Assembly (NCBI GenBank): GCA_965214705.1
Contig: CBDCCI010000002.1
Coordinates: forward strand, 320,001 to 384,000
Origin: Alphaproteobacteria bacterium
GTDB lineage: Bacteria; Pseudomonadota; Alphaproteobacteria; UBA828
Reading direction: 5' to 3'
DNA: 64,000 nt
In this document: one piece after another, positions 12,040 through 50,030 of the stretch
Layout of the letters: every line of letters begins with the position of its first letter
How positions within the stretch are numbered: the stretch's first letter is position 1
Program-made: the position numbers and the translations under genes
Notes under the pieces: generated by a model
Seen by the model: only the letters and a program-made list of their open reading frames with translations
The model's database searches: none
Told to the model about the DNA's origin: nothing

Positions 12040-12285
12040 TCGCCTGGCCAGCACGTCATTGTGACGAGGCGCCGCGCGCCTGTGCGCCTTCACCAGATCG
12101 GTCTTCGGTCGATAGCCGGGCATCAGCTCGTTCGGGCGTCGCCACGTCGTGGGCAACGACCAAACGTGACTGCCAAGAAGTCCCGTCATGGCCGTCTTCT
12201 CCTCTTTCGAGGAGGACCCACTCGACCGGCTCGTGGGAAACGCTAGGATTATCCCACTCGTTGTAGGGCCAATTCGGTGCGCCTC

Positions 12286-15237
12286 CTACAGCTCGAGTTC
12301 GAGTTCCGGCCCTTCCCGAACGATCTCCCGCTCCCGTTTCCGTTCGGCGGGCGCCTGGGTCCGTTCCGGCCGCCGCGGTGCTCTCTCCTCATCCGGCGAC
12401 TGGAATTCGGGTTCGAGCGGTCCCGGCGGGCGCTCCCGCGCCACGTTCAAGCCTTCCTTCGGCACCTTGACGCGTTCCGGCTCGACCGCCTCCAGCGCGG
12501 CAATACGCTCGCCGGTGGCAACCTCCAGCCGCTCGCGCAACGCGCTGCGGTCGTCGGTCACCAGCTCGGCATGGTAGCGGGCGCGGCTGATCTCGACGTA
12601 GAGCGTCTTCTGCGTGGTCAGATGGGGGTGGCCGGCTTCCATCGCGGCGATCACACGGTCGACGGTGCGGCCCTGGAAGGCATGCACGGTCGAGGCCCAG
12701 GCCCTGTCCACATGGCGCAACTGCGGATCGTCCCTTCGCAATTCCAGCGTCCGGCCGTCTTCGAGACGGAAGGACACCCCCCGCTCTCCGATGGCCGCCA
12801 CCTCGGCGGTGCCGCTGTTGACCAGCCCGTGCGTCCTGTCGTTCCGGGTCCAGCACAGCCTGTCGCCGCTTTGCAGCTCGACGGCATCGACGGCGTAGAC
12901 CTCCACGCCGCCGGTTCGGGCCGCCAGCCTGCCCGGCTCCCAGGCCACGGTCCTGCCGTCCTTGCCGGAGAGCGTCACCACGCCCGCGCTGCGGTCGACG
13001 CCGGCGACGCGCAGCTCGTCGCCCTTCTCCACTCCGAAGCGCTTGTACCGGCGGTGGAAGGCCACCACGTCGCCGCGCGCATAGTTGGCCGCGAGCGACT
13101 TCTCCGCATTGGTATAGCCCCTCGAGAGCAGCCGCTCGGCGTTCATGGCCGGACCGCCGATGGCTCCGTCGCGGACCAGGCGCTCCCGGACGATGGCGTT
13201 GATCCTCTCCCTGAGAGCGTGGCTGGGCGCCATGAGCCCCGTGCTCTCCCGCTCTTCGGCCGACAGCGCCAGCCAGCGCGCGGCCGCCGCGCCCGCGAGG
13301 TTGTCCGCCTTCACCTCCGCAACGTTTGGACCGAGCTTTTCGAACGCCTTGCGGACGTCGCCCGCGAGGCTCGCTTCGACCGCTTCCTTCAGTGCCGGAT
13401 CGCGCTGGCGCACGATGTCGTCCATCACCGCGCACTTCATGCCCGCGCCCTGCAACTGCGCGAAGGGCTTGCCGGCGTCGACGGCGTCCAGCTGCTTCTC
13501 GTCGCCCACCAGGACGACGCGGGGGATGCGCAGGGTCTCCGCAATCTTCAGGAGATCGCGCGCCTGCGCGGTCGAGGCGAGGGAGCCCTCGTCCACGACC
13601 AGAACCGTCTTCCCGAACCCGGTGCGCATGCGCCGCTCCGCCCTGTCCGTGAGCCGGCCCCCGGCAACGCCTGCGTTGCGGACGAGGAAGCCCTGCAGCG
13701 TCTCGCTCGCGATACCGGCCTCGGTGCCGAGCGTGCGCGCGGCCGACGCGGACGGCGCCAGGCCCCTGACCTCGAAGCCCCGCTTCTCCAGCAGCGCGCG
13801 GGCACGGTTGAGCATGGTGGTCTTGCCGGTGCCGGCATAGCCCTGGACGCCCACCACGCGGTCCCTGTCCGACAGGATCAACTTCACCGCGTCCTTCTGT
13901 CCCGGGGTGAGGGGACCGTTGCGCAGCGCCTTGTCGACCGCGCGCCCGCGCATCGCCACCGCGCCCCGCCCCCGGCCGCGCTCCATCAGCGCGATTGTCT
14001 CGCGCTCGTCGGCGACGGCCCTGTCGGTGGTGAGCGAGTCTCCCGGCACCGGGTGGTTTGCGGCATGCAGGGTGCCGGCCTTCACCAGGCGCGCCACGGC
14101 GGCCTCGGCCTCTCCGATGCTCAGGGCGCCCGGCCTCCAGGCGAGGGCGGCGGTGAGCAGGTTCGTGCGCGAGAACACCGCTTCGCGCTCCGAGAGATGC
14201 GCGACGGCCCAGTTCACGGCCCGGTCCGGGTCGTTCTCCTTCGCCTGCGCCGGACCCCGCCCGTCCCCGCCGCGCCCGAGCCCCTCCCGATGCGCCGCCC
14301 TTGCCGCCTTCCGCCGTGCCGCCCCGGCCGCGAGTTCATAAGCGTCGAAGCCCAGATCGGCCGCCTGCCTCTGCCAGCTTTCGCGCAGCGCGTCTTTGTC
14401 GACGTCGCGCTTGTGGGCGCGGGTCACCAGGGCGGCGCGCTGCGCGAGACGCTGGTCCTGCGCCGGATCGCCCAGCCCCCGCGCCGCCATCGCCGCCTCG
14501 ATCTCGGCGCGCCGCGTGGAAAAGGCCTCGACGACCGTCCGCGTCACGCCCGCGATCTCGAAGCGCCCGTCCGCGTGGGTCTTCTCGATGGCGTAGCCCA
14601 GCTCCTCCAGGCCCCGCGCCAGCTCCGCGCGATAGAGGGCGCCGATCAGCATCTTCGACGCGTAGAGCTTCTCGTTCGCCATGGTGCGCCACTTGCCGTC
14701 CCCGCCCTGCACCATGTTGGCGATCACCGCGTGCGTGTGAAGCTGGGGGTCCAGATTGCGCGAGGTATCGTGGCGGAAGGTGGCGATCACGGCCTTCTGG
14801 TTTCCGGCACGGATCATGCGCCCGCTGTCTGCGTCCATCGTCCGGGTCTCGGCGGCGTTGCCCTCGATCCACGCAAGGGTCTGCCGCACCGCGGCGTCAT
14901 GGGCGGCCACGATCCGCCCGTCGCCGCCGATCAGGGCGGCGATGGAGACCGACTTCGGCGCCGAGAGGGTGACGTCCCGGCCGGGACGGTGGCTGATCGT
15001 GCCGTCCCCCAGGCGGCGGCCGAGCCGCCGGCCCAAGCCGTCGGGGACGGTGCCGTCGAGGATGTCCGCGAAGAGATCGGGATCGACGGGGCCGGAGAGC
15101 CCCAGCGCGTCCGCGCCCTTGCCGGCCCAGGCGCTGGCCTCGAGGTGCTCGGCATCGTGTCTGGCGTAGTACCCGTCCCTTTCGTAGTAGCTGACGCCCT
15201 GCGCGGGCGAGGAGACGGCGCCGATCGAGGCGACCAT
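12286..15237 (-). CDS. trwC: MOBF (TrwC/TraI-like) conjugative relaxase-helicase
   Basis: N-terminal SYYERDGYY, DVTLSAPKSVS, FRHDTSRNLDPQLHTHAVIAN (HUH); helicase motifs VQGYAGTGKTT, VVDEGS, TVHAFQGRT. Confidence 0.96.
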   Translation of the reverse strand: MVASIGAVSSPAQGVSYYERDGYYARHDAEHLEASAWAGKGADALGLSGPVDPDLFADILDGTVPDGLGRRLGRRLGDGTISHRPGRDVTLSAPKSVSIAALIGGDGRIVAAHDAAVRQTLAWIEGNAAETRTMDADSGRMIRAGNQKAVIATFRHDTSRNLDPQLHTHAVIANMVQGGDGKWRTMANEKLYASKMLIGALYRAELARGLEELGYAIEKTHADGRFEIAGVTRTVVEAFSTRRAEIEAAMAARGLGDPAQDQRLAQRAALVTRAHKRDVDKDALRESWQRQAADLGFDAYELAAGAARRKAARAAHREGLGRGGDGRGPAQAKENDPDRAVNWAVAHLSEREAVFSRTNLLTAALAWRPGALSIGEAEAAVARLVKAGTLHAANHPVPGDSLTTDRAVADERETIALMERGRGRGAVAMRGRAVDKALRNGPLTPGQKDAVKLILSDRDRVVGVQGYAGTGKTTMLNRARALLEKRGFEVRGLAPSASAARTLGTEAGIASETLQGFLVRNAGVAGGRLTDRAERRMRTGFGKTVLVVDEGSLASTAQARDLLKIAETLRIPRVVLVGDEKQLDAVDAGKPFAQLQGAGMKCAVMDDIVRQRDPALKEAVEASLAGDVRKAFEKLGPNVAEVKADNLAGAAAARWLALSAEERESTGLMAPSHALRERINAIVRERLVRDGAIGGPAMNAERLLSRGYTNAEKSLAANYARGDVVAFHRRYKRFGVEKGDELRVAGVDRSAGVVTLSGKDGRTVAWEPGRLAARTGGVEVYAVDAVELQSGDRLCWTRNDRTHGLVNSGTAEVAAIGERGVSFRLEDGRTLELRRDDPQLRHVDRAWASTVHAFQGRTVDRVIAAMEAGHPHLTTQKTLYVEISRARYHAELVTDDRSALRERLEVATGERIAALEAVEPERVKVPKEGLNVARERPPGPLEPEFQSPDEERAPRRPERTQAPAERKREREIVREGPELELEL

Positions 15238-15238
15238 G

Positions 15239-17404
15239 TCACGTCCGACACAGACCCGAAGGCATCGTTCTGTTCTCCGGCGGACCGGCCGGCGCGTCCT
15301 TACGGGACGGCGCCTGCGGGCGCGAGGATGCGGCCGGCGCATCGACGGCGCCTTCGTCCGCTTGCGGCCCTGCATCCGCCGCGCCTTCCGCGACGTCGAC
15401 GGCGCAGTCCAGCGTGCGCTCGCCACCCGCCTCTTCGGATGGACACCCGACCGGGCAATCCGGCCCGTCGTCCGCCGGCATCCACCCCTCGAAGAGCCAC
15501 TCCGCCTCTTCGCCCGCCTCTTCGCCCGCGTCCGTGAGGCGCCATCGATCCGGCTCGTCCCGCTCGGGACGGCCACCGCCTTCGCTGCTTCCCGTCTCCT
15601 CGACGGGCGCAGCTTCGGCCGCTGCCACGGCTGCGGATACGCCGCTGCCGCCGCTCCGCCTCTCTTCCTCATCCTCCTTCGGCACGAAGCGCGGGGCCAC
15701 GATCTTTCGCTCCCTGTACCTGAGCCCGATCCGCGCCACGGGCAACTTGCCGGGGAACTTCAGGTAGCCCGAGAGGTTCTCCAGGCGCGCCACCTCCGAC
15801 GGAAGAATCAGGGGACGCTCCTCGCGCCGCGTGCTCAGCGTCACGCCGCCGTGCGGGGTGTCGTAGCTCACGCCCTCCGAAAGCGACTCGACCTCCACGT
15901 TCCCCAGGCTCTTTGCGGCCCACTCCGAGGTGTCCTTGTCGGGTGCCGCCAGGACGACCCGCGTGCCGCAGAGGCCCGAGATCGTCGTCGCGCCGTCGCC
16001 GCCGTAGATCTCCCGCAAGGCCGAGAACACCTGGACGCCCAGCACGAAGCAGCCCCCGTACTGGCGGCTCTGCGAAAGGCCGGGCCGGAGGCTCGGGAGC
16101 TGGTGCAGGGTCGGAAGCTCGTCGAGGATGACCCAGACACGCCTTCTGCCGCCGCGCGGCAGCGAGAGCAGCGCGTTCACCGCGATCTCCAGCCAGGTGG
16201 AGATCAGGCCCCGCAGGCTCGCGTGCTGGTCGGCCCTCGACGTGAGGAAGAGGAAGCCGCCGCCTCCCTCGTGCCCGACCCACTCGCGGATGGAGAAGGG
16301 AGATCCCTCGTCGGGAAACAGGTCCAGGGCAGCGATGCTGGCGGTGAGCATCGCGCGCACGGACAGCGCAGTCTTCGGGTTGTCGGGATCGACGATGGAC
16401 TGCACCACGGTGTCCTCCATGGCCTCCGCGAGCTCGCTCAGCTCGGTCTTGAGCAGGTGCTCCACCAGCACCCGGTTGCGGGTCTCGCCGCGCTTCCACA
16501 GCACGGCGGCTCCGTTGGAAAACAGTTGGCGTGCTGCGGTGATCCAGAAGGGGTCTGCGGCGTCCTTCTGGCGGGGGATCAGGGCCGCTGCCATCGTGTC
16601 GAAGTCGCGTGCCGTGCGGGCTTCGAGGAAGGGCGACCAGCGCGGCGCGCGCCGGTCGAGCGGGTTGAGCAGCACGTCGCGCTCCCTGTCGAAGAAGGTC
16701 TCGGTATAGGAGCCCATCTTGTCGTAGACGACGCAGCGCTCGCCCCTGGCGCGTATCTGCTCGACCAGATCGGAAATGAGCACGGTCTTGCCCGACCCGG
16801 TGGTGCCGGAGACGATCGTGTGGAGTGTCTCGGCCCTTCTGGGCCAGGGGATGCTGGCGACGGTGTACGGAGCGGCCTCGGGCCCCCGCATCAGCAGCAG
16901 CATCTCCCGCCACCAGGGCATGGTGCGCCGCGCCAGCTCCGTTGCCGTCGTCAGCTCGCCGCCGCGCAGGCGCCGGCCGCGCCGGACCCTGCGGCCGACC
17001 GTGCGCAGCCCGAACGCGGCAACGAAGACGAGGCCCACGCCGATACCGCCGCCCAGCATCGCCGCGCCGAGGATGTCGTCCAGGATGCGCTCGCGCAGCG
17101 CGATGAGCCCGTCGAACGACGCGATGTCGCGGAGCGTCTCGTGGTAGACCGTCCCGTCCTCGGCGCGGATCGACTTCTTCTTGTCCGGGCTGAACTGGAA
17201 GGTCAGCATGAGTTCCGAGAGCATGTGAACGCCCAGGACGTGCCACTCCCAGGCGGTGACGCCCACGAAGCTCTTCACGGCCGCGCCGAGCGCGCCCGAG
17301 CCGAGGGCCCAGGTCGCAACGGACCAGCCGAACCTCCACCACGTGCGCCAGCCCCGCACGGCGACCCGGACGCCCCGCCCGGTGTCTCCGCCCACACCCA
17401 TCAT
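15239..17404 (-). CDS. traD: Type IV coupling protein, TraD/TrwB family
   Basis: Two N-terminal TM segments, RRLRGGEL, HTIVSGTTGSGKT (Walker A), WSPFLE, WVILDELPTLHQL; acidic tail; ATGA-coupled start. Confidence 0.93.
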   Translation of the reverse strand: MMGVGGDTGRGVRVAVRGWRTWWRFGWSVATWALGSGALGAAVKSFVGVTAWEWHVLGVHMLSELMLTFQFSPDKKKSIRAEDGTVYHETLRDIASFDGLIALRERILDDILGAAMLGGGIGVGLVFVAAFGLRTVGRRVRRGRRLRGGELTTATELARRTMPWWREMLLLMRGPEAAPYTVASIPWPRRAETLHTIVSGTTGSGKTVLISDLVEQIRARGERCVVYDKMGSYTETFFDRERDVLLNPLDRRAPRWSPFLEARTARDFDTMAAALIPRQKDAADPFWITAARQLFSNGAAVLWKRGETRNRVLVEHLLKTELSELAEAMEDTVVQSIVDPDNPKTALSVRAMLTASIAALDLFPDEGSPFSIREWVGHEGGGGFLFLTSRADQHASLRGLISTWLEIAVNALLSLPRGGRRRVWVILDELPTLHQLPSLRPGLSQSRQYGGCFVLGVQVFSALREIYGGDGATTISGLCGTRVVLAAPDKDTSEWAAKSLGNVEVESLSEGVSYDTPHGGVTLSTRREERPLILPSEVARLENLSGYLKFPGKLPVARIGLRYRERKIVAPRFVPKEDEEERRSGGSGVSAAVAAAEAAPVEETGSSEGGGRPERDEPDRWRLTDAGEEAGEEAEWLFEGWMPADDGPDCPVGCPSEEAGGERTLDCAVDVAEGAADAGPQADEGAVDAPAASSRPQAPSRKDAPAGPPENRTMPSGLCRT

Positions 17405-18072
17405 GGCGCGTGCTCCGCCTCGGCGGGCCCGGCGGCTCCGCTGCCGCCATTGCGATGCCCGCCGAGTGCGAGGAAGCGTTCCAGCCAGCGCTCGGCTGCC
17501 GCCTCGGGCGCCATGGGCCGGATCGTGCGGCGCAGCGGCGGGAAGGGGAAGCCGCCCGCGCCTGCGCCGAGGTCGCGCCGCTCGGCGGCATCGGTCATGC
17601 GGGCGACGAAGCGCAGCACTTCGGCCCACTCCTCCGGCGGCTCGGGATCGAGGCCCGCCGCTTCCCGCACCGCCCGGTCTATCTGCGTGCCGTGCGTCCT
17701 CGCGCGCGCCGCAGCCCGGGCCGAGGCAGGGTGTTCGCCCTCCCCGTCGCCGAGCCAGGCGGCGCTCGCATTCGCCAGAAGCGCGTGAAGCGCGAGCGCA
17801 CGGCGGTCGCCGTCGGCGATGCCGTCGAGCGCCTCGATCTCCTCGGACGCCGTGAGCCCATGCTGGGCGAGCGAGAGGAAGCGCCTGACGCGACCGTTCC
17901 AGCGGCAGGTGTTGGCCAGCACATGGGCGACGGCCTCGAAGTCCACTGCGCCGGCCTCCACCTGCTCGTGGTCGCTCGGCCACCTGGGCTGCGGGCCGGA
18001 GGCTGCGGCCGCCTGCCTGGGGCTGCGCTCCCTGCGGCGACGCTTGACCGGTGTTTCCTGTTCTGTGACCAT
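17401..18072 (-). CDS. Degenerate HD-domain (YfbR-like) protein
   Basis: DFEAVAHVLANTCRWNG...SLAQH...ALHALLANASAAWLGD, where the family usually has LLHDAxEAYxGD. Confidence 0.7.
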   Translation of the reverse strand: MVTEQETPVKRRRRERSPRQAAAASGPQPRWPSDHEQVEAGAVDFEAVAHVLANTCRWNGRVRRFLSLAQHGLTASEEIEALDGIADGDRRALALHALLANASAAWLGDGEGEHPASARAAARARTHGTQIDRAVREAAGLDPEPPEEWAEVLRFVARMTDAAERRDLGAGAGGFPFPPLRRTIRPMAPEAAAERWLERFLALGGHRNGGSGAAGPAEAEHAP

Positions 18073-18412
18073 CCCGCTCGTCCTTTCACTTCAGTAATGC
18101 GGTGTTGTTCGCCGGGGGCCGCTTCAGCAACGGCTCCCGGCATTTGTGTGCGGTCCGCGCTCCTCGATCTCCGCCGCTGTGCGTGGAGGCAGAGCCGACG
18201 GCGCAGCGCCTGCCCGCGGCGCTTGACGGGCGCCTCCCGTTCGGTAACGGCGGCCTGCCTCGCGAAAGCCGAGGCTTGCTGCAGTGTGCCGGGGGGTGCC
18301 TGAGGGCACTGGCCGAAGCCGGCAGCCCAAAGGCGGCCCCCGGCATCTTTTCCAGGCGCCCGGCCACAACCGGGCACGGTCCGCGCCGGGAGCCGCGCCG
18401 CGCTCCATCGCC

Positions 18413-20689
18413 CTAGCCTCCCGATCCCGAACCGCCGCGCAGGCGCCCGGTCAGGCGGCCGCTACCCGCTCTCGCGATGCCGCCGGTAACGGCACCCGCG
18501 AGGCGGCCTGCGCCGTCGTCCCCGCCGCCGGCCCGCCCGCCGATCCACTCCAGGACGGCGGAAGGCAGCAGGTCGATCAGCTTGAAGGCACCGTTCATCA
18601 GCGCGTAGCAGAGCATCACGTAGAGGGTGAGCATCGCGAGAAAGCCGATGGGACCCAGTCCGTCCGAAGCACCCGCGTCCCTCAGCTGCGGCAGCCAGAT
18701 GGCGTTGAGCAGGCCGATCGCCGCGAGGAACACGAAGTAGCCGAGGATGAGGCCGAACAGCATCAGCGGCGGGCGCAGGATCAGGCCCGGCAGGAACAGC
18801 CAGCCCTGGCGTGTCGCGGGCACCATGAGGCCCCGGTCCTGGCCGCGCGTGACGTGGGCTGCGGCGAACACGGTGACGGCGAGCACCGCCTCGACCACGT
18901 TTACCAGCCAGCCGAAGACGCCGAAGAGGAAGCGGATGAAGGGGAGCGCAGGCAGCACGAACGCGAGCACGGCGCCTGCGATCAGCATGAGGCCCAGGAT
19001 GGTGGAAACGAAGCCGTCGGTGACGTGCCAGACGGACTCGAAGGCATCGAGGCCCTTGCCGAAGAAGGGGATCGATTCCAGCAGACCGGAGCCCACGGCG
19101 ACGCCGGAGATCGCGCCGATGGCCCCCAGGGCTGAGGCGATCAGGTCGTAGCCGAAGCCCGCGAGGTCGGCGATCGGGTTGCCGCTGTCGGCGATGACGA
19201 CCGCATCGAGGTCGATGAACTCGAAGAGCCCGGCCACCAGCCCGCCGTCGCCTCCCCCTGCCGAAGAAAGCGTCCCCGCAACCCCGCCGCCTGCGGCAAA
19301 GAACACGGGTTGCCAGGTGCGCGAAGATGCCAGAGCGGCGAGCAGGCCCTTCACCGCCGCGGCCGCGGGCGGCGACCACTCTTCGAGGCTCGGCAGGGGG
19401 AGCGCCGCGTCGGGGACGTTGTGGGCGGCGGCCTGGAAGAGGCCGGTGCGGGACGCGATGGTGTTGAAGAAACCGGCGGCGGCGAGCCACGACGAGCCTG
19501 CGGCGTCCTCGGCGACGGCACGCTCCAGGGCGACCCGCTCCTCGGAAGCGGCCCGGCTCAACGCATCGTCAAGGACGGACTCATAGGACAGCGCGAGGCC
19601 GCGGGCGTTCATGGCAGCCTCGACGTCCGGCAGCGGCCGGCCGTGCACGGGCGAGCCCGGCAGGTAGCGGTCTCCCAGATCGGCGGCGAGGCCGCGCAAG
19701 GCCGGGAGCAGCCCCTCCATGGCGCGCCGATGTCCGTGCGCGGCGATCCCTCTGGACCCTTCGCCGTCGAGGCCGTCGAAGCGCACCGCCCCGCACAGGT
19801 CGCGGGGCATGCCGCGCCCGTCGCCGTCGTAGTGCAGCAGCAACGCGCCGCCTGCGCGCTCGTCGTTCACCTCGATGTAGGGGTCGTCGCCGATACGGCG
19901 CGCATTGGCGTTGGCGACATGCGTGCAGGTCTCGGCCAGCAGCACGCGGGATATGGCCGAGCGCCAGGCGGCGGCCTTGGGACGTGGCGCGATGGGATCG
20001 CCGCGGCCCAGCGCCTGTTCGGAAAAGGGCGTCCACACCGCGCCGGCGAAATCGCCGCCGAGAGTGGCCAGTCCCACCACGGCGTGCTGCGCACCGTTCA
20101 TGCCGCCCGGCAGCGGGGCCATGAGGGCCACCGCCACCACGATCCGCACGATCTCCCAGGCCCCGAACCCCCAGCGGCCGGTGCGGGCCGTGTCGACGGT
20201 TCCAGCCACGGTGTGCCAGAGCAGCAAGAAACCCGCGAGCACCAGCACGCCGCCGTTGAAGACGAAAAGCATGTCGCCCAGCACCGCATGGCGCGCGACA
20301 TCCATGTCGCTCAGGAACCCCAGCAGGTCCCGCGTCGCGTTGTCGGCGGTGGCGAAGATATCGGGATCGATGGTCTGCGCGCCCGCGGAGCGGGTGGCCA
20401 GCCCCGCGGCACCGACGGCCGCCAGGCCCGCGCCCAGGGCCGAGAGCGCGGCACCGAGCAGGACGCGGGGACGCCGATCCCGCTCCAGCAGGCGCCGCCA
20501 GCGCCGCTCCCCGCCGATCACGGGGGAACCCCCTGGTACAGGGGAACTCCCTGGTACAGGGGAACTCCCCGATATCCCGTCCGAAAGCGCCCGGACGCTT
20601 CGGCCGAGACGCCGGGCGGCCTGCCGGACCTCGCCCAGGCTGCGGCCCACCTCGGGCGCGAACAGGAAGCGCAGGATCCGCACGGTCAT
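18413..20689 (-). CDS. dotA: DotA/TraY family inner-membrane protein
   Basis: Polytopic membrane protein; SWLAAAGFF, LAFVLPALPFIRF, LILRPPLMLFGL, LPSAVLEWIGG; position at the end of the T4BSS cluster. Confidence 0.88.
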   Translation of the reverse strand: MTVRILRFLFAPEVGRSLGEVRQAARRLGRSVRALSDGISGSSPVPGSSPVPGGSPVIGGERRWRRLLERDRRPRVLLGAALSALGAGLAAVGAAGLATRSAGAQTIDPDIFATADNATRDLLGFLSDMDVARHAVLGDMLFVFNGGVLVLAGFLLLWHTVAGTVDTARTGRWGFGAWEIVRIVVAVALMAPLPGGMNGAQHAVVGLATLGGDFAGAVWTPFSEQALGRGDPIAPRPKAAAWRSAISRVLLAETCTHVANANARRIGDDPYIEVNDERAGGALLLHYDGDGRGMPRDLCGAVRFDGLDGEGSRGIAAHGHRRAMEGLLPALRGLAADLGDRYLPGSPVHGRPLPDVEAAMNARGLALSYESVLDDALSRAASEERVALERAVAEDAAGSSWLAAAGFFNTIASRTGLFQAAAHNVPDAALPLPSLEEWSPPAAAAVKGLLAALASSRTWQPVFFAAGGGVAGTLSSAGGGDGGLVAGLFEFIDLDAVVIADSGNPIADLAGFGYDLIASALGAIGAISGVAVGSGLLESIPFFGKGLDAFESVWHVTDGFVSTILGLMLIAGAVLAFVLPALPFIRFLFGVFGWLVNVVEAVLAVTVFAAAHVTRGQDRGLMVPATRQGWLFLPGLILRPPLMLFGLILGYFVFLAAIGLLNAIWLPQLRDAGASDGLGPIGFLAMLTLYVMLCYALMNGAFKLIDLLPSAVLEWIGGRAGGGDDGAGRLAGAVTGGIARAGSGRLTGRLRGGSGSGG

Positions 20690-26516: not shown

Positions 26517-26524
26517 CGCCGTTC

Positions 26525-26965: not shown

Positions 26966-26976
26966 GGTCGTCTCCT

Positions 26977-32191: not shown

Positions 32192-32203
32192 TCATCTCCC
32201 CGG

Positions 32204-36767: not shown

Positions 36768-36779
36768 CTCTCCGTCTCC

Positions 36780-39849: not shown

Positions 39850-39863
39850 GTCTCTGTCCTCCG

Positions 39864-42532: not shown

Positions 42533-43437
42533 GAGCCGTCTCCCTTGCCATCCCGGCGCGGACCGGTAACGGCGAAAGGACGGGGCCTGTACGGAAGGGC
42601 GCCCTCGACGGCGCCCTCCACGTGCACGCCCGGCGGGCGGGCAACGATGCGCGCCACCGTCACGCCGCCGGGGAGGCTGTCTCCCTCGCGCACGAACCAG
42701 ACCCTCGCGCCACCGTGCCCGGTGCCGTCGCCGATGCCGGCGCGCAGGTCGCCGGCCGTGCCGATGATCGAGAACCAGGCATAGTCTGGCGGCGCGGGGT
42801 CTGCCGGCGCCTCATCCTTGTCCGGCGCCTCTTCGGCCGCCTCGTCCGCGGGCGGCAGCGAGATCACGCGGACCGGCACCGACTCCTTAACTGTAGGGGT
42901 GTCCGCAATCGTGGAGCCGACTTGGCCCCCGGTAGGCCTCGCAGCGCTGCCCCGCGCCTCTGCCAACAATTCCCCGAGCTCGCCTTCAAGGGCGACGATG
43001 CCGTTGACGATCTCCTGGCGCTCGCGGCAGAGCGCCAGGGTCTCGCGCTCGATCGCCAGCGCCGAGACCGCATCCGCCGTCTCGGTCGCCTCCGCCAGAA
43101 GCGCTGCCAACAGCGCGCGCGGACAGCCCTGCAAGACGGCCGCAGGTGCTGCTCCGCCGCTCGCCGGCAAGCCGGCCCCAACCGGATCGGGTTCGCCGAC
43201 AAGTGCCTCCGGCGCCGCCGGCTCCGGAGCCGGCGGCGCCGCCCCCTCGCTCAGCATCCGCAGCAGGCGGCTGTCCGGCATGGCGCCCGCCCCGGCATCC
43301 GCCTCGGCAGCCGCGTGGGCAATCCCGATCGCCGTTGGCGGCAGCGCTGCGGGTTCGCTCGCCGCGGCAGCGCCCGCCGTCAGAGGCGCAGCCAGAAGGC
43401 CGGCGAAGAGAGCCGCACAGCGGACCGGAGCAGTCAT
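42529..43437 (-). CDS. PilP-like pilus biogenesis protein
   Basis: Signal peptide, coiled coil, C-terminal SIIGTAGDLRA...VREGDSLPGGVTVARI. Confidence 0.7.
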   Translation of the reverse strand: MTAPVRCAALFAGLLAAPLTAGAAAASEPAALPPTAIGIAHAAAEADAGAGAMPDSRLLRMLSEGAAPPAPEPAAPEALVGEPDPVGAGLPASGGAAPAAVLQGCPRALLAALLAEATETADAVSALAIERETLALCRERQEIVNGIVALEGELGELLAEARGSAARPTGGQVGSTIADTPTVKESVPVRVISLPPADEAAEEAPDKDEAPADPAPPDYAWFSIIGTAGDLRAGIGDGTGHGGARVWFVREGDSLPGGVTVARIVARPPGVHVEGAVEGALPYRPRPFAVTGPRRDGKGDGS

Positions 43438-43444
43438 CGTCCGG

Positions 43445-44683
43445 TCACTCCCCGCCGCCACCGGCGCCAGGGGCGACCGGATCGATGCCGGGAAGCGCCT
43501 GCTGCCCGGCGGCCAGGCCGCGCCAGGGCCAGGCATAGGTCTCGGCGACCCCGTCGAGCGAGACGTGGAGATGGCCGCGCGACCACCGCCAGCGCCCGCC
43601 GATCTTGCCTCCGTCTGCGGCCTCCACTGTCGCCGTGCCGCCGTCGCCGAAACGCACGGCCACGCCGCCACGATCTCCCAGAGGCAGCGTCACCGGCCGA
43701 TCGGCGGCCAGGAGCCGGTCCGTCAGCACGAAAGCCCCGTAGCGCTCACCCGTCGGCTGCAGCGGGAAGGGGTCGCCCAGGCGGTACTCCAGACGGCGCG
43801 GCAGGCGCTCCCACTGCGCCACGATCCCGGCGCCATCGGCCGCAGGCAGCAGTACCGCCGTGTCGGCTACGTCCCCACGCTCATCCAGCCGCCAGAGCTC
43901 GTCACGCTCGGCTCCCAGCACCAGCACCACGCGCACAGGGGAACTCCTTGGTGCCCCCGCCGGGCTCTCCAGCACGTAGCCGTCGTTGGCGGCCAGGAAG
44001 CGGCCGAGCTCTGCCGCAGTCACCGTCGAACTGCCGCCCGACATCGCCAGCCCGGTCGAGCCGGGCGCGCGCAGCTCCGAGCCGGGGTGCGCACGCACGG
44101 CGGCGTCCGCATCCTGCGCAACCGCCTCCTCCATGAGCGCGGAGACCTGCTTGGCGTTGACCGGAAGGCCGGCGGGAAGATCGAGGTCCGGACAGGCCTG
44201 CTTCAGCGCCTGCGGCCAGCTCTCCTGCACCCAGCCGAGCGAGAGCACGAACCAGGCGCTCCCCCCGACGCTCTCGCTGTGGAGCCGGCCCGTCCCCGGG
44301 TCGTAGAAGATCGGCACGTGGCCCTTCACGTGGCCCGGATCGGGCTCGGTGCCGGCGTCGCGGTAGTTGTAGAGGGCCCGGAAGCGGGGCGAGGACACCA
44401 CGCGCCAGCGGTCGACACGCGCCTGCCAGACGCCGTCGAGGTGGATGCACGCCCGCGCGGTGCCGTCGGCCGCGTGGTGGATGCCCCAGACCAGGCCCCG
44501 GTCGCCCGCATGCGCCGAGTTGGGACGCTCGAGAACCCAGACCCGGTCCGTCAGCAGCTCCGAGAACAACGCCGCATCGTGGGAGCTGTAGTTGGGAGGC
44601 CCGGACTGGGCACTTGCCTCTGCCGCGCCTGCCGCCATGAGAGCGGCCGCCGCCAGGCCCACCATGCTCCGACGCGCCTTCAT
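43445..44683 (-). CDS. Secreted hypothetical protein
   Basis: Signal peptide ASA-Q, Trp-rich globular sequence, ATGA-coupled to the upstream gene. Confidence 0.7.
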   Translation of the reverse strand: MKARRSMVGLAAAALMAAGAAEASAQSGPPNYSSHDAALFSELLTDRVWVLERPNSAHAGDRGLVWGIHHAADGTARACIHLDGVWQARVDRWRVVSSPRFRALYNYRDAGTEPDPGHVKGHVPIFYDPGTGRLHSESVGGSAWFVLSLGWVQESWPQALKQACPDLDLPAGLPVNAKQVSALMEEAVAQDADAAVRAHPGSELRAPGSTGLAMSGGSSTVTAAELGRFLAANDGYVLESPAGAPRSSPVRVVLVLGAERDELWRLDERGDVADTAVLLPAADGAGIVAQWERLPRRLEYRLGDPFPLQPTGERYGAFVLTDRLLAADRPVTLPLGDRGGVAVRFGDGGTATVEAADGGKIGGRWRWSRGHLHVSLDGVAETYAWPWRGLAAGQQALPGIDPVAPGAGGGGE

Positions 44684-46359
44684 GACCGAACCGCCCGGAC
44701 CGGCGCGAGCCAGCGCGCCTCGAGGCGGCGCACCATGGCGACGTAGATGGCGAAGGCACGATCCTTCTCACCGGCGCGGATCGCCGCCACCGCCTCGTCG
44801 ACCCGGTCGCCGATCCAGGTCCAATCCGCGTGAGCGCGGGGGATCGCCGCGACGATGCGGGGCGCGATCTCGTAATACCTGGCCACCAGGGCGCGCCGCT
44901 CCGGCGTCTGCTGCATGTAGCCGTCGCGGAAGGACCTGAGCGCCGTCAGCGTCGGGCCGTCGTCGGCCTCGATGCCCCGCGCGCCTGCCACCGCCTCGGT
45001 GAGGAAGCAGCCGCCATCGCCGCCGCCGCTGCCCGCGCCGGGACCCACGCCCGGCCCCGAGCAGGTGCCGTCGCCGGGGCCGTCCGAGCCGCCGCCATCT
45101 CCGGGTGCAGGCCCGCAACTGCCGTCGCCGGGACCGCCCGTTCCGGGACCGACCCCTCCGGGGCCGCTGCCTCCGGGGCCCGTCCCGCCCGGAGGGCTGA
45201 CCGTCGGCGGCGCTACCGCCACGCAGCCCGTGTCGTCCGCGATCCAGTTGCCCGGGATATCCTGCACCGTCGGCGACGCGTCCCATGGCCACCGGGTCGA
45301 GCGCTCCGTCACCGTCCGGGTCAGCAACACCGTGCCCGTGTACCCCGCAGGGCAGGACTGTTGCGCCGTCTCTGTCCTCAGCGTCTCCGACACCGCGGCC
45401 TGCGGCAAAGCGGGCACATGCCCCTCCCAGCAGCTCGTGGACACGAACTCCGGCGTGCCCCAGGAAACGCCCTCCGCCGTCACCGTCTTCTCGCGCCGCC
45501 AGATCTCCTGTCCGGTCATCTCCCGGTTGTGCGGGGGGCCGGCGAACCAGGTGCACTCCAGCGTGTAGTGCTCCCACTCGCTGTAGTCGGCGCGGCAGTC
45601 GTCGATGAGCACCTGCCAGGAACCGGTGACGGGGGCGCCCGTGGGATCGCCCCGACCGTCGTGGGCCTGGCGGACCTCCCGGGTCATGGTGCGGCCGCCG
45701 CCGTGGCTGCCCGCAGGGCAGTCCTCGACGGTGCGCTCGTGGGAGATACGCTCGCGGCTCTCAAGGTGCGGATCGCGCACCGTGCCGGCGAGCGCCACGC
45801 GGCCGGAGGGCAAGGGGCCGCCGAACGAGGCGTCCGACAGGCATGCGGGCAACGCCACGTCGGCGCGGCCCGCCGTCCCGGTGGCTGAATCCCCTTCCAG
45901 CCAGTGCAGGGCCGGGAGGCCGCCCACCAGGGAGTTTCCCTCTTCGGCATAGAGGTGCGGCGCAACCTGCACCGAGCGGTGATCGCGCCCCACGCCCTTC
46001 AGGGACGCCGGCTCCAAGTAGACGAGAAGAGTGTTCCCGCAGTAGCGCGCACGCACCCCGCGCTCGGTCCAGGCATCGAGCCAGCCCATGGCGGCAGGGG
46101 GCACCGAGCCGGTCCAGCTCACCGCCGCCGCCGAGCGGCGGAGAATGTGGTCCTCCAGGCTCCGCCAGGCCTCGGCGATGGCCGTCGCATGGGCCAACGC
46201 CTCCTGGCGGTAGGCCCGCTCGGCCTCGTACCCCTGCGCCGCCGCAGGCGTCGTGAACGCCGCAACCCCGGCGAGCACCGCCGTGCCCGTCGCGATCGCG
46301 ACCGCGAGCGTGCTGGCTCCGGCCAGAACGCGGGCGCGCAAACGTCGTCTCCTACTCAT
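44680..46359 (-). CDS. Cys-rich secreted protein with C-terminal CFI-box-like domain (putative adhesin)
   Basis: Arg-rich signal; CPAG repeats; Gly/Pro linker; GGCFLTEAV...LRSFRDGYM...YYEIAP. Confidence 0.72.
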   Translation of the reverse strand: MSRRRRLRARVLAGASTLAVAIATGTAVLAGVAAFTTPAAAQGYEAERAYRQEALAHATAIAEAWRSLEDHILRRSAAAVSWTGSVPPAAMGWLDAWTERGVRARYCGNTLLVYLEPASLKGVGRDHRSVQVAPHLYAEEGNSLVGGLPALHWLEGDSATGTAGRADVALPACLSDASFGGPLPSGRVALAGTVRDPHLESRERISHERTVEDCPAGSHGGGRTMTREVRQAHDGRGDPTGAPVTGSWQVLIDDCRADYSEWEHYTLECTWFAGPPHNREMTGQEIWRREKTVTAEGVSWGTPEFVSTSCWEGHVPALPQAAVSETLRTETAQQSCPAGYTGTVLLTRTVTERSTRWPWDASPTVQDIPGNWIADDTGCVAVAPPTVSPPGGTGPGGSGPGGVGPGTGGPGDGSCGPAPGDGGGSDGPGDGTCSGPGVGPGAGSGGGDGGCFLTEAVAGARGIEADDGPTLTALRSFRDGYMQQTPERRALVARYYEIAPRIVAAIPRAHADWTWIGDRVDEAVAAIRAGEKDRAFAIYVAMVRRLEARWLAPVRAVRS

Positions 46360-47698
46360 GATCCGGACTCCCCGTCGTTGGCTGTGCCGGCGCTTGCGTC
46401 GCCGGCCGCTCCGGTGGTTCACCCGCTGGCCGAGCCGCTCGCTGCGCCACTCGCTGCGCCACTCGCTGCGCCAGCCGCTCGAACTCCGAGCCGGGAATGG
46501 ACGCCGGCGCCACGCGCCGTCCTTCCAGGGTCCATTCGCCGGCCGCGTCTTGCGCGAGGCGCACGAGCTCCAGCCCCGGCACGCTCGCGACGGCATCGGC
46601 GAGCCGCTCCGGTGGCCGCCGCGTCGCGATGCGAACCTCGATCCCGTCCGCGCCCTGCTGCGGGTATTCGATGCGGGTTCCGCGGGCGCCGAAGCGGCGG
46701 TCCACCGCGTCCCGGAACTCAAGAAGGGAAGGCGGCACGGCATTCGACAGACGCAGCACGGGTTCCAGAGGAACCACCGCCCAGGCCGCAGCGCCGCTGA
46801 CCTGCGCCGCGTACCAGCCCGAGAGATGCGCCTCTGCGATGCGCCGGTGCAGAGGCTCCGGCCGGCCTGAATCGAGGCGCCAGCGCACCGCCAGCACCGC
46901 CCGGCCTTCGAACTCGGGACGGGCCGCGGTCAGCGCGGCGTACCAGGGCGTTCCCCTGTCGGCGAAGCGGCCCTCGCAGGAGACCCGCTCCGTCCGCCAT
47001 GCCGGCAACCAGGGCGGATGCTCCATGAGCGCCCGGCGGCAGCCCGCGATCAACGCGCCCGAATCCAGCGCGGCCGTCACCGGCGGATCGGCCGGCGCCT
47101 GTTCGACCTCCGCCGCCCGCTCGGGGCCGGCAATCAGACGCCACAGGCTCTCGTGCTCGGACCAGAGAACGACGGAAGCGGCCATGAGAGCGGCCACGCT
47201 CAGAGCGCCCGCCGCCGTGCGCAGCCCAAGCCGTGCCAGAGGCGCAGCGGCAAGGCGCATGGCGGGATCGTCCGCCAGCGCCGCCGGATCGATCCCGGCT
47301 GCCTCGCCGTCCGCGAGCCCCGGCGTCGCATGCAATGCCCAGCCGACGTCGCGGGAGCGTTCGAAGGCTTCCAGGGCCGATGCCCGGTCGGAGAACACCT
47401 CGTCCCCGTCCGCGAGGATCGCCCCGTCCCGCGCCTTCACCAGCGCGAAGCGCCCGTCGTCCGCCTCCACCAGCGCCATCCAGAAGGGCGCTCCGATATG
47501 CGCCTGCAGCGATGCCGCGAGGCTGGGGCAGCCGGCGGGATCGTCCTCGTCGGCCGCATACCCGGTCTGCCCGCCCCAATGGACGTACCAGGGACGGCCG
47601 AAGGCGCGCGCATTCCGCGCCACCGAGGCCGCACCGCCGCGCTCCATCCAGTAGAGCCCCGCGGCGAAGCGCCGGCCGCTGACCGTGAGCACGCTCAC
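46352..47698 (-). CDS. pilO: PilO2-like type IVb pilus protein
   Basis: GRRFAAGLYW, SLAASL, DGAILADGD, central TM; follows the secretin. Confidence 0.78.
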   Translation of the reverse strand: MSVLTVSGRRFAAGLYWMERGGAASVARNARAFGRPWYVHWGGQTGYAADEDDPAGCPSLAASLQAHIGAPFWMALVEADDGRFALVKARDGAILADGDEVFSDRASALEAFERSRDVGWALHATPGLADGEAAGIDPAALADDPAMRLAAAPLARLGLRTAAGALSVAALMAASVVLWSEHESLWRLIAGPERAAEVEQAPADPPVTAALDSGALIAGCRRALMEHPPWLPAWRTERVSCEGRFADRGTPWYAALTAARPEFEGRAVLAVRWRLDSGRPEPLHRRIAEAHLSGWYAAQVSGAAAWAVVPLEPVLRLSNAVPPSLLEFRDAVDRRFGARGTRIEYPQQGADGIEVRIATRRPPERLADAVASVPGLELVRLAQDAAGEWTLEGRRVAPASIPGSEFERLAQRVAQRVAQRAARPAGEPPERPATQAPAQPTTGSPDHE

Positions 47699-49296
47699 GA
47701 GGGATCACCCCGGTACAGGGGAACTCCCTGGTACAGAGCAGCTCCCCGGTCCAGCTCGACTCCCTGCACCTCGGAAATGCCCAGAGGCGCGCCGATATCT
47801 GCCGCGATCAGAAGCACGCGCTCCTCCCGCACCAGCCGCGCGCTGCGGCCGCCGAGCGGCACCGGCAGGTCCGCGTCGATGCTGCCCTCACGGCTCGACA
47901 CCGCGCCCCGGTCGCTGAACCCCGTCACCATCAGGGTCTCGCCGCGGCCGATCTTCCTGGTCACCTGCACCGCGCGCCCGCCGTAGGCCGGAAGCTGGAT
48001 GGTGTGACCGTCCGTGGTGAAGGTGGTGAAGCGCGGCCGGTCCCTGAGACTCGCGCTCAGGCGCACCAGGACCTCGTCGGGGCCGGTGATGCGCGCTAGG
48101 TAGGAGAGCGCGAACCCCGAGGACACGGTGCCGGGCACCAGCTCTGTCTGCGCGACACCCTCGCCGGCCGTGGTCCTGAGCTCCTTGAGATAGGCCTCGT
48201 TGGTGAGCTCCAGGAACTGCGCGGGCTTGCCGTTGAGAGAGGGGATGTCCGCGCTCAGAACCCTGGACACCGTGCCCGCCCGGCTCAGCGCGCGCACAGC
48301 CGCCGCCAATGCGTCCTCGGCCCCGGTGGGCCGGATCAGCGACACCGTGTCGCCGGCCACCGCGACGCCCACCGACGAGTCCAGAAGCTCCGAGAGCGAG
48401 AGAGCCACGCCATGGTCGGTCTCGCGCTCGAAGCGCACCGCATAGAGGTGCACCGACAGCGTCACCGGGCGCAGCACCTCGCGGTTGAGCCAGCCGAGGT
48501 AGCCGCGCACCCTGCGCACGTCACGAGGCGCGCCGCTCACCGTCACCGACGCGCTCGCCGGCGAGACCGTGACCACGGTCTCCTCAGCCACGAGCCCCGC
48601 GAGCTGGTCTTCGATCTCGGGCCAGGGGTCGTAGACGGTCTCGCTCTCGATGGACTGCGCGGAAAGGCTGGCGGAGCCGTCCTCGCCCGTCTGGTCCTGC
48701 GTGGACGACGAGGCGCCGTGGCGCTCGCTGCCGGCGAGCGCGTTGACTTGGAACACCGCGGTGAGCGAGCGCACGATCTCGATGCGTTCCGTGCGCGAGT
48801 CATACCGCCACTCGTGGCCGGCGGCCTCCACCCAGGCGTCCAGCAGCCGGTCGATCGGTCCGGTCCAGACGGCGCCGTTCGGCACGAGCAGGTCGGTAGC
48901 GGCGAACGAGGCGCCGACATCGCCACGAGCGGCACCGACGAAGCGCACCGGCAATCCGGTAGCGGCCTCGATGCGCGCCGCCAGCACCGCATCTTCATCG
49001 GCGCCCGTCAGCGGCAAGGTCACCGCGTCATCGGCAAGCAAGCGCTGGGGCAGAGTGCCGCGCCGGTCCTCCTCGATCGGTTCAAGCCCCACGTAGGGCC
49101 GCGCGACAGGGCGCACCGTGACGTAGCCGGACCCGGCCGGGGCCGTGCGCGCCGCTGCGGCGTCCCGGGCCACCGCACGCGCCTCTTCGCGCGCATCTTC
49201 AATTGTGCTCAGGCCGCAGCCGGTCAAAGCGAGCAAGGTGGATAGTGCCAGCGCCGAAGGCCGCACGATCCGCAAGTGAGTCCGCGCGCCCATCAC
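47695..49296 (-). CDS. pilN: PilN-like liposecretin
   Basis: LTG-C lipobox; SVTVSGAP, LNGKPA, LVPGTVSSGF, IQLP, GETLMVTGF. Confidence 0.88.
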   Translation of the reverse strand: MMGARTHLRIVRPSALALSTLLALTGCGLSTIEDAREEARAVARDAAAARTAPAGSGYVTVRPVARPYVGLEPIEEDRRGTLPQRLLADDAVTLPLTGADEDAVLAARIEAATGLPVRFVGAARGDVGASFAATDLLVPNGAVWTGPIDRLLDAWVEAAGHEWRYDSRTERIEIVRSLTAVFQVNALAGSERHGASSSTQDQTGEDGSASLSAQSIESETVYDPWPEIEDQLAGLVAEETVVTVSPASASVTVSGAPRDVRRVRGYLGWLNREVLRPVTLSVHLYAVRFERETDHGVALSLSELLDSSVGVAVAGDTVSLIRPTGAEDALAAAVRALSRAGTVSRVLSADIPSLNGKPAQFLELTNEAYLKELRTTAGEGVAQTELVPGTVSSGFALSYLARITGPDEVLVRLSASLRDRPRFTTFTTDGHTIQLPAYGGRAVQVTRKIGRGETLMVTGFSDRGAVSSREGSIDADLPVPLGGRSARLVREERVLLIAADIGAPLGISEVQGVELDRGAALYQGVPLYRGDPS

Positions 49297-50030
49297 TCGC
49301 TCTTCGGAGAGCAGGGGGACTCATCGGTGTCGGGTTCGGGTGGCGGCTTGCCCGGGTCCGAGGTCGAGGAACGCTCCCGGGACGCCAGCCAGGCATTCAC
49401 CTTCGCGCGGGCGTAGAGAACCCGGCCCTTCAGCTTCAGGTATGGGGGACCGCCGCCCTCCAGCCTCCAGCGGCAGAGGGTGCTTTGGCTCCGGCGCAAG
49501 ATCGGCGCAAGCTCGCGCGTGCTCCAATAGAGAGGCTTGGCTCCCGCAGCCGGCGGCGGCTCCTCTGCCGCTGCGGACGAAGCCGCGTCCTCGCCGGAAA
49601 GCTCCTCCGCCCCCGGCCCTTCGCCGGCGGCGGCCTCGATCATGCGCCATTCCTCGGCGGTCGCATTCTTCCTCATCCAGGCGCGCATCCGGTCCACGGT
49701 CTTGAGGCGAGGAGAGGAGCCGTTCTGCAGGCGTTTCACGAAGGAGCGGTTCTGCACCGCCCCCTGGCCCACCGCGCTTGGCTTCGCGCCGGTCACGTTC
49801 AGATAGGCTTCCACCTCTTTCCTGAAGCGCGGCCCGATCAGCTCCATGCCCATGAAGTGGAGAATGCGGTCTGCGGTATCGAGGCGGGGCGTACATTTGC
49901 CCCCCAGCAGGACGCGGACAAAGGAGGGGTTGCCGAAGAGCATGCGTCCCATTCCGGACGGACTGAGCTTGCTCCGGCGTTCGATGAAGGCCTTGACGGC
50001 GTCCTTGAGGTATTGAGCACTATCGGTCAT
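49293..50030 (-). CDS. Regulator with two Cro-like HTH domains and a C-terminal excisionase/AlpA-like HTH
   Basis: Internal repeat (GNPSFV...PRLDTADRI / QNRSFV...PRLKTVDRM); STRELAPIL...TLCRWRLEGGGPPYLKLKGRVLY; ATGA-coupled to pilN. Confidence 0.8.
   Translation of the reverse strand: MTDSAQYLKDAVKAFIERRSKLSPSGMGRMLFGNPSFVRVLLGGKCTPRLDTADRILHFMGMELIGPRFRKEVEAYLNVTGAKPSAVGQGAVQNRSFVKRLQNGSSPRLKTVDRMRAWMRKNATAEEWRMIEAAAGEGPGAEELSGEDAASSAAAEEPPPAAGAKPLYWSTRELAPILRRSQSTLCRWRLEGGGPPYLKLKGRVLYARAKVNAWLASRERSSTSDPGKPPPEPDTDESPCSPKSE

Follow-up and report, generated by a model that had tools for sequence, protein, structure and literature searches.

A putative chromosomal conjugative element combining an I-type transfer machine with an F-type TraD coupling protein and a TrwC relaxase

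The window analysed here is a 64,000-nt stretch (C3:320001-384000) of a 7.92-Mb alphaproteobacterial genome in three contigs (4.17, 0.71 and 3.04 Mb; GC 66.7-66.9%). At 12286-50030 it carries a block of genes that pairs an I-type (Dot/Icm-like) envelope machine and a type IVb thin pilus with an F-type TraD as coupling protein and with a relaxase of the TrwC kind, a combination that a first-pass annotation had proposed and that family models confirm. We consider it likely that these genes form the transfer region of a conjugative element integrated in the chromosome, i.e. a putative integrative and conjugative element (ICE) of mating-pair formation type I (MPF-I), and that its TraD-TrwC cassette stems from F-type ICEs.

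Composition of the gene block

The block comprises about 31 genes, all located on the minus strand and none of them interrupted according to a GC3 frame plot and a codon-usage score. In our gene calls the start and stop codons of most genes overlap or abut. The same calls reproduced exactly the coordinates given in the first-pass annotation, TrwC ending at 12286 and the first gene (encoding an HTH_17 protein) beginning at 50030, and the co-oriented, mostly overlapping arrangement described there was confirmed for all ~31 open reading frames (ORFs). GC content is 0.70-0.75 across 12-50 kb versus 0.61-0.66 in the flanks. The genes of the I-type core and of the coupling/relaxase cassette are, in the order of the reading direction:

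34347-34976, minus strand: DotD/TraH lipoprotein (tblastn to Roseomonas p3 DotD, E 7e-8, and pAP1447-2 DotD, E 3e-5)
33478-34350, minus strand: DotC/TraI lipoprotein family (PF16932, E 1.1e-54)
32204-33481, minus strand: DotB/TraJ ATPase (TIGR02524, E 3e-62; TIGR02525, E 1.9e-54)
31862-32191, minus strand: IcmT/TraK (NF038220, E 8.8e-16)
31398-31862, minus strand: small TcpQ-domain protein (PF10671, E 4.8e-8)
30346-31380, minus strand: DsbG-like thiol:disulfide interchange domain protein (NF008657, E 6.5e-19)
29709-30353, minus strand: DotI/IcmL/TraM (PF11393, E 6e-40)
28666-29670, minus strand: DotH/IcmK/TraN (PF12293, E 6.5e-43)
27500-28597, minus strand: DotG/IcmE/TraO with VirB10-like C-terminus (NF033900, E 1.7e-13; NF033884, E 4.6e-13; TrbI, E 1.5e-5)
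26977-27513, minus strand: TraQ-like protein (NF033883, E 5e-11)
26525-26980, minus strand: 151-aa ORF, no family or PDB match, kept in the sister clusters B-D (see below)
23415-26516, minus strand: IcmB/DotO/TraU-type (VirB4-like) ATPase (tblastn to plasmid IcmB/DotO genes)
22429-23421, minus strand: single-stranded DNA-binding protein (SSB) with long C-terminal tail (PF00436, E 4.7e-28, residues 4-102)
21876-22406, minus strand: conserved ORF, no family match, start uncertain, homologues in clusters B-D
20686-21804, minus strand: ORF with weak TraW match, possibly IcmX-like (NF033888, E 0.0012; no PDB match), present in all four clusters
18413-20689, minus strand: DotA/TraY (TIGR04346, E 6.9e-59)
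18073-18412: non-coding gap of 340 bp according to gene calls, the joint of MPF-I block and coupling/relaxase cassette
17401-18072, minus strand: o17404, conserved soluble protein of 223 aa (no Pfam or NCBIfam match)
15239-17404, minus strand: F-type TraD/TrwB-family coupling protein of 721 aa (TrwB_AAD_bind, TIGR02759)
12286-15237, minus strand: TrwC-type MOBF relaxase-helicase of 983 aa (PF08751, E 8e-84; AAA_30, E 1.8e-49; UvrD_C_2, E 1.2e-6)

By its family matches, the window's type IV coupling protein (T4CP) is of the TrwB/TraD type and not of the DotL type. TrwB_AAD_bind (PF10412) is matched at E 1.2e-129 over 386 of 387 positions, and TIGR02759 (TraD_Ftype, E 4.7e-128) is by far the best-scoring family. 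Both the all-alpha DNA-binding and the nucleotide-binding domain of TrwB type are found, with an intact Walker A motif (GTTGSGKT). Matches in the PDB are TrwB sequences only (1e9r, 1gl6; E 4.3e-58). The best plasmid matches are TraD genes with ~40% identity over the nucleotide-binding half, and the two that were checked are typed MOBF + MPF_F. Similarity to a DotL-type T4CP is not significant (E 0.025).

The relaxase carries what characterises MOBF, namely an HUH relaxase domain with its Tyr residues and His triad and a C-terminal SF1B helicase. Its N-terminal domain matches R388 TrwC (1omh) at E 8.3e-61, whereby the Tyr pairs (SYYE..YYA) and HxDx..HxH align; TrwB (1e9r) and TrwC (1omh) of R388 are thus the best solved relatives of the two window proteins.

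For the envelope machine, PMC3158045 assigns MPF-I where at least four of TraI, K, L, M, N, P, Q, R, W and Y occur. Six are clear in the window (TraI/DotC, TraM/DotI, TraN/DotH, TraQ, TraY/DotA and TraK/IcmT), TraW being weak, and the TraU/IcmB-type VirB4 homologue required for MPF-I is present. In tblastn, this IcmB shares 34-38% identity with alphaproteobacterial plasmid genes, part of which are annotated IcmB/DotO, the alignments covering 89-96% of its length; identity to the Roseomonas and Acetobacter IcmB is 36%. As query it matched 3771 plasmid records, 3218 of which are typed conjugative. DotD starts with a signal peptide and a Cys lipobox. Among the gene names of the first-pass annotation, dotD/C/B, icmT/L/K/E/B, dotA and pilN-V were borne out by family models or tblastn, PilO and PilR weakly. 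The name icmX is not upheld by the weak TraW match of ORF 20686-21804, and icmD was given to ORF 26525-26980, which is without any match although it occupies the place where DotN/IcmJ would be looked for. ORF 26977-27513 does match TraQ, while its name icmC leans on an equivalence of TraQ and icmC that we presume.

Profile searches of the whole genome revealed neither DotL/TrbC (NF041447) nor DotM/IcmP (NF033890); the latter model matched none of 14 control genomes, yet it matched pAP1447-2 and IncI proteins. Likewise, whole-genome tblastn with IncI TrbA, TrbB, TrbC, NikA, NikB and ExcA gave nothing at E <= 0.01, with a positive control that worked, nor did the DotL/DotM pair of an Acetobacter plasmid. 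The lack of DotL/DotM and NikAB, initially noted for the block, hence holds genome-wide, and as the genome is 98.5% complete according to marker genes, absence of DotL/DotM is likely but not proven. A VirB4 of CagE_TrbE_VirB type was not found in the genome either. No primase or recombinase domain was seen in the scanned cluster ORFs, Sog and Rci themselves not having been used as queries.

The joint of DotA and o17404 is spanned without differences by 707-letter Logan contigs from two runs (X1 and X5) of two studies, X1 perhaps being the source sample. Over the stretch such contigs are mostly short and broken by paralogues, and none of the runs listed as holding it is of RNA.

The 223-aa protein itself yields weak leads. 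The best PDB sequence match is 2gz4 (E 0.49), which is also best in Foldseek (E 0.068, template modelling score ~0.35). The AlphaFold2 model has a mean predicted local distance difference test score of 58, and Atlas clusters labelled YfbR/HD_3 scored <0.9. Since family, PDB, Foldseek and Atlas matches are absent or weak, the structural comparison gives a lead only, according to which o17404 is possibly HD-superfamily-like.

Recurrence in the genome and among relatives

Genome-wide we counted 36 TrwC matches (30 at E <= 2.3e-57), 11 TrwB_AAD matches (7 strong) and four DotH genes. The latter correspond to four colinear pil plus dot/icm clusters A-D, cluster A being that of the window. Cluster B (C1:1.608-1.651 Mb) shows 45-94% protein identity and has TraD and TrwC at its end; it is interrupted, DotB and PilR by insertions of ~2 kb and IcmB by a break. 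Clusters C (C1:1.278-1.308 Mb) and D (C1:3.443-3.478 Mb) are 40-76% identical, with ~2.1 kb inserted in IcmB of cluster D. In both, DotA is followed by a VirD4/TraG-type T4CP (PF02534, E 1.8e-36 and 2e-39; NF010394, E 3.9e-25 for C) that shares only 24% identity over 131 residues with TraD. The sister clusters lie near TrwC-type relaxases, in the case of D a divergent one of 1299 aa.

As side observations, the ~2-kb insertions in DotB, PilR and IcmB of clusters B and D might be group II introns able to splice out, and many TrwC relaxases of the genome seem to be without a T4CP and machine of their own (36 TrwC versus 7 strong TraD).

The remaining strong TraD/TrwC pairs sit in F-type elements, which carry TraL, TraB, TraC, a TraF-like S26 peptidase, TraU, TraH and TraG where the window element has pil and dot/icm genes. 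The frame around these genes is common to both: an S24/HTH_17 head, an o17404 homologue, SSB and a TraD + TrwC tail. Window TraD and TrwC are 56-75% and 64-73% identical, respectively, to the copies in the F-type ICEs of the genome. Homologues of the HTH_17 protein (36-38% identical) head these ICEs, and the divergent S24/HTH_17 pair is also found at C3:236038-237538 within one of them, DNA identity to such copies being ~74%. When the heads of clusters B-D were compared, the HTH domain of the first gene was the sole common part, without an S24 gene.

Beyond this genome, an alignment of DotA yielded 30 loci, every one of them in a metagenome-assembled genome; Alphaproteobacteria, Rhodospirillales or Kaistiaceae appear in 29 of the record titles. 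Downstream of DotA we found TraD-TrwC in 12 loci (11 genomes), a VirD4-type T4CP in 14 and a DotL-type gene in none of the 30. The other four are uninformative (two contig ends, one truncated DotA, and L054 with neither kind within 10 kb). Several genomes hold both kinds of T4CP. An o17404 homologue lies upstream of TraD in 11 of the 12 TraD-type loci; such homologues also occur in compact elements without MPF genes and after TraC in F-type ICEs. The linkage of MOBF and TraD with the I-type machine thus recurs and DotL/DotM were not found genome-wide, the two points on which the first-pass interpretation had been made to depend.

Among the best 80 of 231 TraD relatives, the region upstream of TraD contains the F-type gene TraH in 39 cases, DotA in 8 and neither in 20, and is too short in 13. 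In the TraD tree (94 rows after removal of seven duplicates, three plasmid TraDs as outgroup) all 14 MPF-I-linked TraDs fall into a single clade of 26 rows (support of 100 in the approximate likelihood-ratio test, SH-aLRT) without any F-linked member. All 43 F-linked TraDs lie outside; one change between I and F suffices. The unclassified rows of the clade include compact HTH-o17404-TraD-TrwC elements without MPF genes. Because the family model is F-type and the two outgroups that are typed for MPF are both MPF_F, linkage to F-type machines is likelier ancestral for this TraD lineage, the root being insecure.

The DotA tree (32 rows, Roseomonas p3 as outgroup, three short rows left out) implies at least two changes of T4CP type: L056, which is TraD-type, lies within a VirD4-type clade (support 99) and L066, VirD4-type, on the other side. 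The patterns of both trees fit an exchange of cassettes.

In a side observation, the F-type TraD lineage (L074-L152 and the genome's copies) is 73-85% identical over 382 residues and, by record titles, spread over many phyla, its holders being Nitrospinota, Acidobacteria/Vicinamibacteria, Binatia, Thermodesulfobacteriota, Gamma- and Alphaproteobacteria. This suggests one ICE family moving between the phyla of a common habitat.

Comparison with known systems, proposed mechanism and alternatives

The IncI1 plasmid R64 has the same PilN, O, Q, R, S, U and V set as the window and the same TraH/DotD, I/DotC, J/DotB, K/IcmT, M/DotI, N/DotH, O/DotG, TraQ, U/IcmB and Y/DotA, where we take the R64 names to be equivalent to those of Legionella. 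In contrast to the window, R64-type plasmids use a NikA/NikB (MOBP) relaxosome together with TrbA/TrbB/TrbC (DotM-/DotL-like, as on an annotated IncI plasmid), none of which was found in the window genome, whereas the window has F-type TraD and TrwC and is chromosomal. Moreover no Rci or shufflon was seen in the block, which has two pilV genes and three extra ORFs between pilO and pilQ. With the Dot/Icm effector systems it shares core homologues (DotA, B, C, D, G, H, I, IcmB and IcmT). Those systems inject effectors and work with a DotL-DotM-DotN-IcmSW coupling complex, while the window lacks DotL/DotM and has a relaxase, SSB and a thin pilus, a set that points to DNA transfer.

To place the window among plasmids, ten alphaproteobacterial IcmB-bearing plasmids out of the top 40 of the 3771 records were typed by MOB-suite. 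Three were assigned MOBF + MPF_I, five non-mobilizable, one MOBP and one MOBP/MOBQ + MPF_T. MOBF with MPF-I is hence already in public data and, at least in Alphaproteobacteria, not the anomaly it was initially taken for; the real departure is the coupling protein. Of five plasmids checked, four encode a T4CP of TrbC/DotL type and lack an F-type TraD. These include the three MOBF + MPF_I plasmids, Beijerinckia indica pBIND01 (NC_010580), Acetobacter ascendens pAP1447-2 (NZ_CP021526) and Komagataeibacter xylinus pA (NZ_CP041349). Like the window they combine an MPF-I core (IcmB 34-35% identical) with MOBF. Unlike it, they carry the TrbC/DotL-type T4CP (E 1e-75 to 1e-91), pAP1447-2 in addition DotM (E 2.7e-36). 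No thin-pilus genes were seen in the parts examined, and they are plasmids whereas the window element is chromosomal.

The fifth, pSR4 of Aminobacter sp. SR38 (NZ_CP062116), resembles the window in having DotD, C, B, IcmT, DotG, H, I and IcmB as its MPF-I core while lacking a T4CP of DotL type. It differs by a Ti-type TraA relaxase with TraC/TraD accessory genes, and its TrwB-like T4CP is only 25% identical to window TraD. MOB-suite calls it non-mobilizable, as it does four other IcmB-bearing alphaproteobacterial plasmids; automatic typing thus misses such systems. Its host is a cultured soil bacterium, while the relatives of the window are uncultured, which makes pSR4 a tractable model.

Judged from gene content, DotL has been replaced on the MPF-I chassis more than once, and the window does not stand alone: at least three other coupling types occur on this chassis, an F-type TraD, a VirD4/TraG-type T4CP, and a TrwB-like T4CP with Ti-type TraA (pSR4). 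On these comparisons we read the element as an MPF-I chassis whose coupling/relaxase cassettes are exchangeable, with all modules known already and only recombined. The first-pass proposal of a swapped recruitment module therefore stands as to the missing DotL/DotM, the recurrent linkage and the fitting trees, but not as to the MOBF pairing, which is itself not unusual in Alphaproteobacteria. What is new is an I-type machine that recurs in chromosomes, in up to four copies per genome; in the loci examined its T4CPs belong to two other lineages, and DotL is in no case its partner.

In the literature, MPF-I-associated coupling proteins are reported as nearly monophyletic (PMC3548315), many MOB/MPF combinations occur (PMC3158045), MOBF is found with four MPF types, of which MPF-I may be one (PMC9185392), and MPF-I ICEs are reported to be extremely rare or absent (PMC5587801, PMC3158045). 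Our literature searches turned up no account of an I-type system that has an F-type TraD.

We propose that the divergent S24 repressor/HTH_17 pair heads one long operon, which would build the thin pilus (PilN-V) and the I-type envelope machine and end in a DNA-processing cassette of the 223-aa protein, the F-type TraD ATPase and the TrwC relaxase-helicase. TrwC would nick a putative origin of transfer (oriT), and the TrwC-DNA complex would then be passed by TraD to the I-type channel, TraD thereby replacing the DotL/DotM (TrbC/TrbA) complex that such machines normally employ. The cassette would derive from F-type ICEs co-resident in these genomes and represent one of at least two interchangeable coupling/relaxase cassettes on the MPF-I chassis. 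Heterologous VirB10-like proteins are known binding partners of coupling proteins, and the DotG C-terminus is VirB10-like. Docking of TraD on the I-type machine, transfer of the element and the direction of the exchange are what we infer from sequence.

A wider proposal is put forward tentatively: an F-type TraD would feed a type IVB machine without DotL/M/N, the cassettes (F-type TraD + TrwC, VirD4-type + TrwC, TrwB-like + TraA) would be plug-in units in which the HD-like 223-aa protein may act as portable adaptor, and chromosomal MPF-I ICEs would be common in a genus of uncultured Alphaproteobacteria. If the elements transfer, the contact between coupling protein and channel would be portable across the deepest split of type IV systems, the DotL-DotM-DotN platform would be no requirement but a specialisation, and the route by which a type IVB channel receives its substrates could be tested on them.

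Several points weigh against reading the block as one conjugative element with a cassette from F-type ICEs. TraD scores 428.4 bits against TIGR02759, below the curated equivalog cut-off of 521.35, and class F of the TraD loci was defined by TraH alone. Both the DotA and the TraD tree have very long outgroup branches, hence the direction of exchange is one of parsimony with no secure root. The cassette also exists alone, without MPF genes, in L076, L090 and at C1:2717229-2723686 of the same genome, so that its linkage with MPF-I need not be functional, and in the window a 340-bp gap sets DotA and cassette apart. A search for oriT by inverted repeats and conserved DNA in 18073-18412, 11840-12285 and 50031-50418 did not locate one: it yielded one imperfect repeat in the regulatory gap (50031-50418), two short matches and little conservation, and no inverted repeat in the DotA/o17404 gap or downstream of TrwC. 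No integrase, att sites or element ends were assigned in the window, which is also free of tRNA genes. As the flanks are full of insertion sequence (IS) elements, a group II intron and a recombinase trio, its status as an ICE is provisional. Related loci sit in records of 3.5-6.2 Mb titled 'chromosome'.

The free-standing cassettes and the gap would fit two unrelated neighbours, that is a relaxase-less, protein-secreting type IVB system of probably host-associated bacteria beside an independent mobilizable HTH-o17404-TraD-TrwC element whose TraD does not serve the machine. The genome is rich in mobile elements, as its 36 TrwC matches illustrate, and in Legionella and Coxiella type IVB systems serve to inject effectors. 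However, a T4CP follows DotA in 26 of 26 informative loci (12 TraD-type, 14 VirD4-type), which argues for a functional slot and not for insertion at random. No second T4CP lies in the MPF-I cluster and no DotL/DotM was found in the genome, SSB and the R64-like thin pilus are features of conjugation, and L091 keeps a DotA remnant beside TraD, which suggests that at least some compact forms are deletion derivatives. We therefore regard two unrelated neighbours as unlikely.

It is quite improbable that the block is an inactive relic of past recombination, kept by chance in a repeat-ridden genome. Sister clusters B and D are interrupted, the flanks contain IS elements, an intron and a TrwC pseudogene, and neither integrase nor oriT was identified in the window flanks and candidate gaps, all of which a relic would explain. 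On the other hand the ~31 window ORFs are all open with overlapping starts and stops, and the catalytic motifs are intact (Tyr pairs and His triad of TrwC, Walker A of TraD). The C-terminal part of DotA is 94-97% identical between species-level genomes while neighbouring genes differ more, which indicates recent spread and constraint. DotH is patchy, as a mobile element should be: within the genus, 12 of 20 other genomes have it (1-4 copies each), against none of four genomes from other genera of the family, none of five from the order and one of 11 from the class.

Identities to the window are uneven along single loci. For L044 they amount to 96% for DotA (C-terminal 640 aa), 85% for the gene upstream, 76% for o17404, 73% for TraD and 66% for TrwC, while the TrwC of L047 reaches 79%. 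Such unevenness among L044-L049 suggests recombination within the cassette too.

Regulatory head, thin-pilus genes and flanks

The following features lie upstream of the I-type core or outside the block:

50419-51162, plus strand: S24 (LexA/CI-like) repressor, divergent from the HTH_17 gene (Peptidase_S24, E 3.4e-16)
49293-50030, minus strand: HTH_17 protein, first gene of the block, regulator or excisionase-like (PF12728, E 1.1e-6)
47695-49296, minus strand: PilN secretin-type lipoprotein (TIGR02520, E 2.9e-42)
46352-47698, minus strand: PilO-like protein, weak (PF06864, E 4.5e-5)
44680-46341, 43445-44683 and 42529-43461, minus strand: three conserved ORFs without assigned role (no Pfam match)
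40910-42532, minus strand: PilQ pilus ATPase (T2SSE, E 2.8e-39)
39864-40913, minus strand: PilR platform protein, weak (T2SSF, E 0.0028; ComGB, E 2.6e-4)
39211-39849, minus strand: PilS type IVb major pilin (PF08805, E 1.6e-13; Bundlin, E 3.8e-7)
36780-37838 and 38090-39157, minus strand: tandem pair of PilV-like minor pilins (Shufflon_N, E 1.2e-10 and 5.9e-5)
36279-36767, minus strand: ORF of 162 aa, no family match
34973-36292, minus strand: PilU prepilin peptidase domain and C-terminal TcpQ domain in one 439-aa ORF (Peptidase_A24, E 8.8e-5; TcpQ, E 2e-10)
5553-6728, plus strand: YAcAr (PF10686) SLOG-family gene, probable leading-region gene (E 8.7e-24)

From the S24 domain we infer SOS-type control by repressor cleavage. 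The three ORFs of 42529-46341 are all kept in clusters B-D, the one at 44680-46341 showing a CFI-box-CTERM match (E 6.1e-10). The PilU-TcpQ ORF is full-length in all four clusters of the genome, and we know of no such fusion in R64. With two tandem pilV genes and no shufflon or Rci seen, adhesin diversity may stem from paralogues and not from DNA inversion.

The coordinates 12286-50030 hold for the gene block, but not as limits of an element, since the S24 repressor and the syntenic YAcAr gene lie outside. By sequence comparison, the right side probably extends to the S24 repressor. To the left the element probably reaches ~5.3 kb, because YAcAr is syntenic downstream of TrwC in relatives: among the best 80 of 231 TraD loci, 18 have a YAcAr homologue downstream of TrwC, those listed being ~2-6 kb off and on the opposite strand, and the YAcAr region shows DNA synteny with L044, L046 and L050. 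YAcAr itself is multi-copy, with >30 DNA matches in the genome, and occurs near both kinds of T4CP/relaxase cassettes.

The outer flanks hold further repeats. Window positions 1-5075 contain tandem tyrosine recombinase genes (5-736, 736-1716 and 3372-4964) that form a separate multi-copy trio element, 99.8-99.9% identical to C1:4091411-4094757. In the window the trio is split by an IS110-family insert (1488-3224) with at least nine near-identical copies. The group II intron at 51204-53306 (reverse transcriptase and maturase ORF 51885-53195) has >25 full or partial copies of 99-100% identity. TrwC fragments of another subfamily are found at 54893-57424 (three Pfam pieces and ORF 55316-57424), which are 88-90% identical to copies at C3:911287, C3:1678660, C2:556705 and C1:1879901.

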